Origin: Escherichia coli
GTDB taxonomy: Bacteria; Pseudomonadota; Gammaproteobacteria; Enterobacterales; Enterobacteriaceae
DNA length: 64,000 nt
Strand: one strand, 5' to 3'
NCBI RefSeq assembly: GCF_003334815.1
Contig: NZ_QOWO01000009.1
Numbering within the stretch: position 1 is the stretch's first letter; the number at the start of each line of letters is the position of its first letter. Shown piece after piece: positions 12,549-13,247 of the stretch. The position numbers and the translations under genes are program-made. Below the pieces are notes generated by a model, which did no database searches, was not told where the DNA came from, and saw nothing but the letters and a program-made list of their open reading frames with translations.

Positions 12549-13247
12549 ATGAAAATCGGCATCATTGGTGCAATGGAAGAAGAAGTTACGCTGCTGCGTG
12601 ACAAAATCGAAAACCGTCAAACTATCAGTCTCGGCGGTTGCGAAATCTATACCGGCCAACTGAATGGAACCGAGGTTGCGCTTCTGAAATCGGGCATCGG
12701 TAAAGTCGCTGCGGCGCTGGGTGCCACTTTGCTGTTGGAACACTGCAAGCCAGATGTGATTATTAACACCGGTTCTGCCGGTGGCCTGGCACCAACGTTG
12801 AAAGTGGGCGATATCGTTGTCTCGGACGAAGCACGTTATCACGACGCGGATGTCACGGCATTTGGTTATGAATACGGTCAGTTACCAGGCTGTCCGGCAG
12901 GCTTTAAAGCTGACGATAAACTGATCGCTGCCGCTGAGGCCTGCATTGCCGAACTGAATCTTAACGCTGTACGTGGCCTGATTGTTAGCGGCGACGCTTT
13001 CATCAACGGTTCTGTTGGTCTGGCGAAAATCCGCCACAACTTCCCACAGGCCATTGCTGTAGAGATGGAAGCGACGGCAATCGCCCATGTCTGCCACAAT
13101 TTCAACGTCCCGTTTGTTGTCGTACGCGCCATCTCCGACGTGGCCGATCAACAGTCTCATCTTAGCTTCGATGAGTTCCTGGCTGTTGCCGCTAAACAGT
13201 CCAGCCTGATGGTTGAGTCACTGGTGCAGAAACTTGCACATGGCTAA
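12549..13247 (+). CDS. mtnN: 5'-methylthioadenosine/S-adenosylhomocysteine nucleosidase
   Basis: Track ORF 12549..13247, 232 aa, [24 protein letters not shown]... Confidence 0.95.

Follow-up and report, generated by a model that had tools for sequence, protein, structure and literature searches.

We consider it likely that the overlapping gene junctions in the DNA analysed here, a 64,000-nt stretch of Escherichia coli chromosome that we call the window, are routine ones, that upstream translation aids the starts at the fhu, yadG-yadH and pcnB-folK junctions, and that the junction between mtnN and btuF is a step-down in expression with a conserved hairpin. Much of this is already known: standard annotation includes these overlaps, the classes of spacing are textbook knowledge, and the linkage of pfs (mtnN) with btuF has been discussed since 2002. 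What is mildly new is that a conserved -8 overlap occurs together with a conserved hairpin and a mapped RNA 3' end within the signal-peptide codons of btuF, on which no comment has been made. Genes can overlap tightly and still be expressed at unmatched levels, as this junction shows, and mtnN/btuF would be a compact natural test case for the effect of a ribosome at a stop codon on a nearby terminator.

Overlapping junctions and their initiation signals

The window is a K-12-like chromosome segment with 14 mismatches over 64,000 nt to the MG1655 record NZ_CP032667.1 (3689825-3753824). None of these differences touches a junction, and the RefSeq gene ends in the K-12 MG1655 record agree with those of the window. 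The RefSeq annotation holds 56 CDSs, from tsf to lpdA, of which 55 lie wholly inside the window, all with clean translations and annotated ends. Overlaps occur in six of the 37 pairs of co-directional neighbours, each with a spacing of -1, -4 or -8.

Five of these junctions had been listed in a preliminary description of the DNA, and a base-by-base check, the RefSeq annotation and clean translations found every one of its coordinates exact. The mtnN (pfs) CDS (12549..13247, + strand, 232 aa) ends with TAA at 13245-13247, and btuF (13240..14040, + strand, 266 aa) begins with ATG at 13240-13242, so that the two share the 8 nt ATGGCTAA (13240..13247). MtnN matches PDB 1JYS/3O4V over its full length and has the C-terminus KLAHG. 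The mature BtuF chain starts at residue 22/23 (PDB 1N2Z, 1N4A), which makes btuF codons 1-22 those of a signal peptide. yadS (14078..14701, + strand), third in the operon, lies 37 nt past btuF. The other four listed junctions are fhuC/fhuD (TGATG, 21125..21129, - strand), where stop and start overlap by 1 nt, and fhuD/fhuB (GTGA, 20237..20240, - strand), pcnB/folK (ATGA, 33970..33973, + strand) and yadG/yadH (ATGA, 47997..48000, - strand), each with a 4-nt overlap. The list had left out a sixth overlap, of 8 nt, between the stop of yadW, which encodes a 21-aa small protein, and the start of erpA (15085..15092, - strand).

The description of these sites as compact operon junctions was correct. 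Independent promoters just upstream of the downstream genes, which had been named as evidence that would speak against coupling, did not appear: a crude pattern scan matched no sigma-70-like promoter on the sense strand just 5' of the downstream gene at any junction. Spacings of -1, -4 and -8 are those enriched in bacteria and archaea (2025 review, PMC12548453). The overlaps are real, routine and previously annotated intra-operon junctions, in a number typical for E. coli; as all six fall into the -1/-4/-8 classes, the observation is correct but ordinary. An Rfam scan of the whole window gave no match at any junction. Above the gathering threshold, it placed the CssrA sRNA between tsf and rpsB (908-1017, - strand), the t44 RNA upstream of rpsB (1856-1942, - strand) and the HtrA (degP) 5' UTR thermometer (10813-10858, - strand).

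The downstream genes differ widely in their initiation signals. We scored the Shine-Dalgarno pairing energy of all annotated starts in the window (55 genes; median -5.3 kcal/mol). That of btuF is very weak (-2.8 kcal/mol, rank 44/55), its sole GGUG lying 13 nt upstream, and that of fhuD is essentially absent (-2.2 kcal/mol, rank 52/55). The Shine-Dalgarno sequence of erpA is average (-5.6 kcal/mol), that of folK can be counted as strong (GAGGG, -6.2 kcal/mol), and those of yadH (AGGAG, -8.5 kcal/mol) and fhuB (GGAGG, -10.8 kcal/mol) are strong. The opening energy of the start region, taken for the same 55 genes as the cost of opening -18..+10 within a -70..+50 context, has a median of 8.5 kcal/mol and reaches 17.3 kcal/mol for folK (first), 17.0 for fhuB (second) and 13.3 for btuF (fourth); it is higher in the overlap genes than in the rest (one-sided Mann-Whitney p=0.03). 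Folding z-scores against shuffles were not significant at any of the six junctions (-1.4 to -1.5).

Judged from the sequence, these features of Shine-Dalgarno pairing and structure would fit an unfolding of buried starts by upstream ribosomes, or short-range re-initiation. That the downstream genes need upstream ribosomes for their translation is plausible, as btuF and fhuD have no usable Shine-Dalgarno sequence and the starts of folK, fhuB and btuF are highly structured.

At the end of fhuC (21159-21133, - strand) we also saw a terminator-like hairpin, GCGGGTGCTGCACCTGT followed by GAGTTTTGTT, 4 nt before the fhuC stop/fhuD start. The Term-seq table discussed below has no 3' end entered there, and regional matches of this kind are within chance expectation.

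The mtnN/btuF overlap and a hairpin within btuF

A 2.4-kb query around mtnN/btuF found matches in 5,425 of 5,426 complete E. coli genomes, many of them at 100%. We then compared one genome per species at 80 loci, all from Enterobacteriaceae, with BtuF identities of 69-98%. In all 80 species mtnN lies directly upstream of btuF and an NTG start stands exactly 8 nt before the end of the mtnN stop codon; these species are related rather than independent samples, and the conservation counts thereby make the evidence look stronger than it is. Escherichia, Salmonella and Citrobacter begin btuF with ATG, most other genera with GTG, and the mtnN stop is TAA in 79 species and TAG in one. The overlapping MtnN residues vary (His/Arg/Asn, Gly/Ala), as do BtuF residues 2-3, while the -8 geometry is invariant. 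Synonymous variability over the last ten mtnN codons is 0.42, against a gene mean of 0.61; this ten-codon segment ranks 16th of 199, and all lower ones are at the mtnN 5' end. The comparison indicates that the -8 overlap is stably maintained. An alternative btuF start, a TTG at -35, was rejected, as it occurs in only part of the 80 species and the -8 NTG in all of them.

A terminator scan found the hairpin CAGGGCG-CTGGT-CGCCCTG (13257-13275, + strand) just past this overlap, followed by the U-rich tail TCTTTTCTTG (13276-13285, + strand), the two together occupying btuF codons 6-16. The hairpin begins 9 nt past the mtnN stop. Its 7-bp stem, with six GC pairs and a 5-nt loop, takes up btuF codons 6-13 (+18 to +36) and has a predicted energy of -12.1 kcal/mol; the tail reads UCUUUUCUU directly after it.

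RNA 3' ends have been mapped to this site. The Term-seq table of Adams et al. 2021 (PMC7815308 supplement) gives 3' ends at K-12 178423 and 178421 (- strand), classed as 'primary (mtn), internal (btuF)'. By matching the printed flanking sequences we placed them after ...CGCCCTGTCTT and ...CGCCCTGTCTTTT, that is, at window positions 13279 and 13281, 4-6 nt past the stem. btuF is entered three times in that table, spanning three growth conditions, and the internal 3' end is printed in the supplement without comment. With about 1,000 curated ends per condition in a 4.6-Mb genome, we roughly estimate the chance of a 3' end inside a given 10-nt tract at about 0.1%. The end has a Rho score of 1.37, flagged 'No', and an intrinsic-terminator score of 2.32, below the authors' cut-off of 3.0 (PMC7815308). 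Measured as a terminator, then, the site has a GC hairpin with a U-tract and a Rho-insensitive 3' end in vivo, and its score falls short of the threshold. Since it does, the 3' end may stem from processing rather than termination; it may be the product of a weak intrinsic terminator or a processed end protected by the hairpin. The same table has a further 3' end within mtnN, at window 12905 (+ strand; K-12 178797), with a read score close to that of the btuF-internal one.

Synonymous codon choice is also unusual across the hairpin. In 77 of 81 species, native btuF codons 4-16 are more stable than synonymous recodings (mean z -1.6; 42 below -1.64), and codons 7-13 have a normalised synonymous entropy of 0.30, compared with 0.655 gene-wide. 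Arg7 of BtuF is encoded by AGG in 54 of the 57 species with Arg at this position, whereas AGG makes up 1.8% of Arg codons in the window genes and 2.4% in mtnN plus mature btuF of the 80 species. The CAGGGC arm is encoded in three codon registers (xxC AGG GCG, xCA GGG CTG and CAG GGC GTC). The retention of CAGGGC/GCCCTG in three registers, together with the rare AGG, fits selection on RNA and not on protein. Compensatory covariation in a fixed register was not found (82.7% of positions paired versus 81.8% in shuffles, the columns being mostly invariant), and all seven stem pairs are present in the E. coli register in 44 of 81 sequences. A good U-tract (at least six T in nine) occurs in 14 of the 81, mainly in Escherichia and a few other genera. 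Going by these comparisons, RNA-level constraint probably acts on the hairpin across much of Enterobacteriaceae. Terminator function is documented for E. coli only, and there in the form of a mapped 3' end.

A further stretch of note lies near the other end of btuF, at codons ~243-257 (~13966-14010), where GACTGGTTTGAACG.GC.AGCCC.CGTATTATCCTCGCCGC is nearly invariant in the 81 Enterobacteriaceae sequences. Synonymous sites are likewise near-invariant there, with an entropy of 0.09-0.17 against the same gene-wide value of 0.655. On the + strand the stretch contains TATTAT, which may serve yadS as a -10 element and is accompanied by a poor -35; the complement, GATAAT, is the -10 of the region's only sigma-70-like match, on the - strand (14019..13990). 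The invariant stretch may be an internal or an antisense promoter.

Expression across the junctions and the case for coupling

We compared synthesis across the junctions with the ribosome-profiling rates of Li 2014 as reproduced in Dataset EV6 of Mori et al. 2021 (PMC8144880), where they are given as molecular weight times molecules per generation; dividing the EV6 values by the listed molecular weights gave exact integers. In the entries of this dataset that we used, the rates are 1802 molecules per generation for Mtn and 38 for BtuF, 54 for FhuC, 27 for FhuD and 11 for FhuB, and 172 for FolK. In the same source, mass spectrometry puts Mtn at ~3-4e-4 of the proteome by mass under every condition and never detects BtuF (PMC8144880).

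The preliminary description held that translation of the downstream genes probably depends on upstream ribosomes. The operon junctions bear this view out in part; tight coupling at mtnN/btuF does not survive the listed rates of 1802 and 38 and the 3' ends in btuF. Synthesis proportional to that of the upstream gene, as expected of a coupled pair, is absent here in that dataset. Coupling at mtnN/btuF cannot be efficient and reaches at best about 2%, because of this gap in synthesis and because many mtnN transcripts end in btuF. Known coupled overlapping pairs, such as trpB-trpA and rplK-rplA (Saito et al. 2020), are co-directional, lie in one operon and overlap by 1 or 4 nt; their Shine-Dalgarno sequence is often embedded in the upstream gene, and subunits of ABC transporters or of complexes are typical. 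mtnN/btuF is unlike them in its rarer -8 spacing, in encoding no complex and in a synthesis gap of ~47-fold across the 8-nt overlap, a figure that comes from one dataset and one condition with a low BtuF count and that takes mRNA level and translation efficiency together. We found no coupling assay of the window pairs in the literature consulted to set beside those of the known pairs. mtnN/btuF is an expression step-down and no stoichiometric coupler.

The way in which we think the junctions work is as follows. At the junctions of the ABC-transporter genes (fhuC-fhuD-fhuB, yadG-yadH) and in pcnB-folK, the downstream start would be buried in translated, structured RNA, and upstream translation probably aids it through RNA unfolding or short-range re-initiation. 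At mtnN/btuF, one promoter upstream of mtnN would drive the operon. As btuF has no Shine-Dalgarno sequence and starts 5 nt before the mtnN stop, a small fraction of ribosomes would initiate there. Most operon transcripts would end or be trimmed at the btuF hairpin, which would act as a weak intrinsic terminator or shield a processed end, leaving a stable monocistronic mtnN message, and a minority would read through into btuF-yadS. On these, btuF would be weakly translated, by an occasional restart of ribosomes finishing mtnN or by poor de novo initiation helped by unfolding. A single promoter would in this way give plenty of MtnN and only about 2% of that amount of BtuF.

Within operons, partial terminators and attenuators are known to set unequal expression, as do T1 of rpsU-dnaG-rpoD and the rplJL-rpoBC attenuator. 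The mtnN/btuF site is like these in having a GC hairpin and U-tract past a highly expressed gene, 3' ends at that position and low readthrough downstream. It is unlike them in that the hairpin lies inside the overlapping btuF gene (codons 6-13), only 9 nt from the stop, and has a sub-threshold score.

Tight termination-reinitiation, in which the ribosome that ends the upstream gene restarts at the overlapping start so that downstream output tracks upstream output, is a reading that we regard as doubtful for the junctions as a whole. The spacings speak for it, -1, -4 and -8 being those of the most efficient or enriched coupling (PMC12548453), as does the lack of a Shine-Dalgarno sequence at btuF and fhuD. 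Reporter assays showed coupling in four out of five overlapping pairs native to E. coli (PMC6728339). FhuC:FhuD:FhuB also fall smoothly, 54:27:11; this is roughly proportional, and compatible with coupled synthesis of transporter parts. However, the ratio of MtnN to BtuF in the same entries excludes efficient coupling at mtnN/btuF, coupling declines once an overlap exceeds -4, and fhuB, yadH and folK have good Shine-Dalgarno sequences of their own. Moreover, when RRF was depleted, coupling in reporters stayed as it was, and so did the ratios of ribosomes at overlapping pairs across the genome; this speaks against re-initiation as the chief mechanism in E. coli (PMC7538156). The coupling mechanism is disputed in this species (PMC6728339 vs PMC7538156).

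It is unlikely that the overlaps are neutral products of compaction or of start and stop drift, with independent de novo initiation and an incidental hairpin in btuF. Overlaps of such lengths are very common and easily evolved, terminator-like patterns are frequent by chance (6 found versus 3.4±1.8 expected), the btuF hairpin shows no covariation, and the yadW/erpA overlap, discussed below, has a stop dictated by erpA codons and an upstream frame that is intact in some genera only. Against this stand the -8 geometry, kept in 80/80 species despite varying residues on both sides, the retention of the rare AGG with low synonymous entropy across the hairpin, the coincidence of independently mapped 3' ends with the U-tract, and the unusually structured start regions of the overlap genes.

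A more specific version of the step-down, to which we give little probability, would make mtnN/btuF a translation-gated attenuator, with 3'-end formation dependent on the place of the lead ribosome, still at the stop codon of mtnN or already restarted on btuF. When a terminator lies only a few bp past a stop codon, the ribosome terminating there largely represses it, and its activity is at its maximum by ~30 bp (Li R. et al., PMC4824070); a terminator in the first 100 bp of a CDS is functional (PMC4824070). As the hairpin is 9 nt from the mtnN stop, ribosome position could therefore tune readthrough. If so, only promptly translated btuF transcripts would extend into btuF-yadS, and B12-uptake capacity would be tied to translation flux through the methyl-cycle gene mtnN.

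Finally, that the hairpin and rare codons (6-13) slow early elongation or limit initiation of the secreted, low-abundance BtuF is quite improbable: the hairpin does lie at +18 to +36 within the signal-peptide codons, the rare AGG/GGG codons are conserved, and the hairpin is conserved where the U-tract is not, beyond a few genera, but the E. coli 3' ends fall 4-6 nt past the stem, as they would for termination or a hairpin-protected end.

Operon context and neighbouring genes

The preliminary description had found the pairing of mtnN with a B12-uptake gene not obvious. This does not hold, as the pairing is already known and has been explained through the activated methyl cycle (PMC11837498). 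It makes sense because Pfs/MtnN converts SAH and B12 is the cofactor of MetH, so that both serve the activated methyl (SAM/methionine) cycle. According to the work cited in PMC11837498, a paper of 2025, discussion of the pfs-btuF operon goes back to 2002 (Cadieux 2002, Beeston & Surette 2002), a pfs insertion in Salmonella is polar and blocks B12 uptake, which implies that the genes are co-transcribed, and a link from B12 to AI-2 was even then a speculation of Beeston & Surette 2002. A pfs-cbiB/cobD-btuF-yeiH operon is reported for 82% of Vibrionales (PMC11837498). Vibrionales pfs-cobD-btuF-yeiH and Salmonella pfs-btuF thus show the same linkage of nucleosidase and B12-binding genes, related to the activated methyl cycle and AI-2 (PMC11837498); in Vibrionales cbiB/cobD lies between pfs and btuF, whereas in Enterobacteriaceae the two overlap directly by 8 nt. 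A full-text literature search gave no match for 'mtnN-btuF-yadS' or 'btuF mtnN operon'.

Downstream of the operon, a 12-bp hairpin lies between the convergent yadS and erpA genes (14711-14737), and an erpA 3' end (K-12 176994/176995, + strand) maps there. On the yadS strand the Term-seq table has no 3' end entered at 14711-14737, which fits low btuF-yadS transcript levels.

The yadW/erpA junction (15085-15150 region, - strand) has the same 8-nt geometry as mtnN/btuF. Its TGA is merely erpA codons 2-3 (ATGAGTGAT), and an intact yadW uORF is confined to Escherichia and some Salmonella, Citrobacter and other genera, so the overlap is lineage-restricted. We rejected it as a generally conserved coupling device, given the patchy uORF and a TGA dictated by erpA codons.

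At pcnB/folK, pcnB is annotated with a non-canonical ATT start at 32576 (+ strand), and a mechanical list of open reading frames begins it at a TTG at 32555. The inefficient ATT start of pcnB limits PAP I synthesis. If it does so here, FolK (172 per generation) is unlikely to be capped by ribosomes from pcnB, which favours de novo initiation at the GAGGG Shine-Dalgarno sequence of folK. Within the ligT-sfsA-dksA-yadB-pcnB-folK operon, pcnB-folK is reported to be transcribed as a unit from a promoter of its own (PMC4161252).

The terminator of dksA, GGCGGGAAATGCTCCCGCC plus a T-run (~31575-31610, + strand), carries a very strong Term-seq 3' end (K-12 160097, window 31605). This end is 15 nt before the gluQRS start in the PGAP annotation (31620) and inside the older, longer gluQ annotation (ATG 31590).
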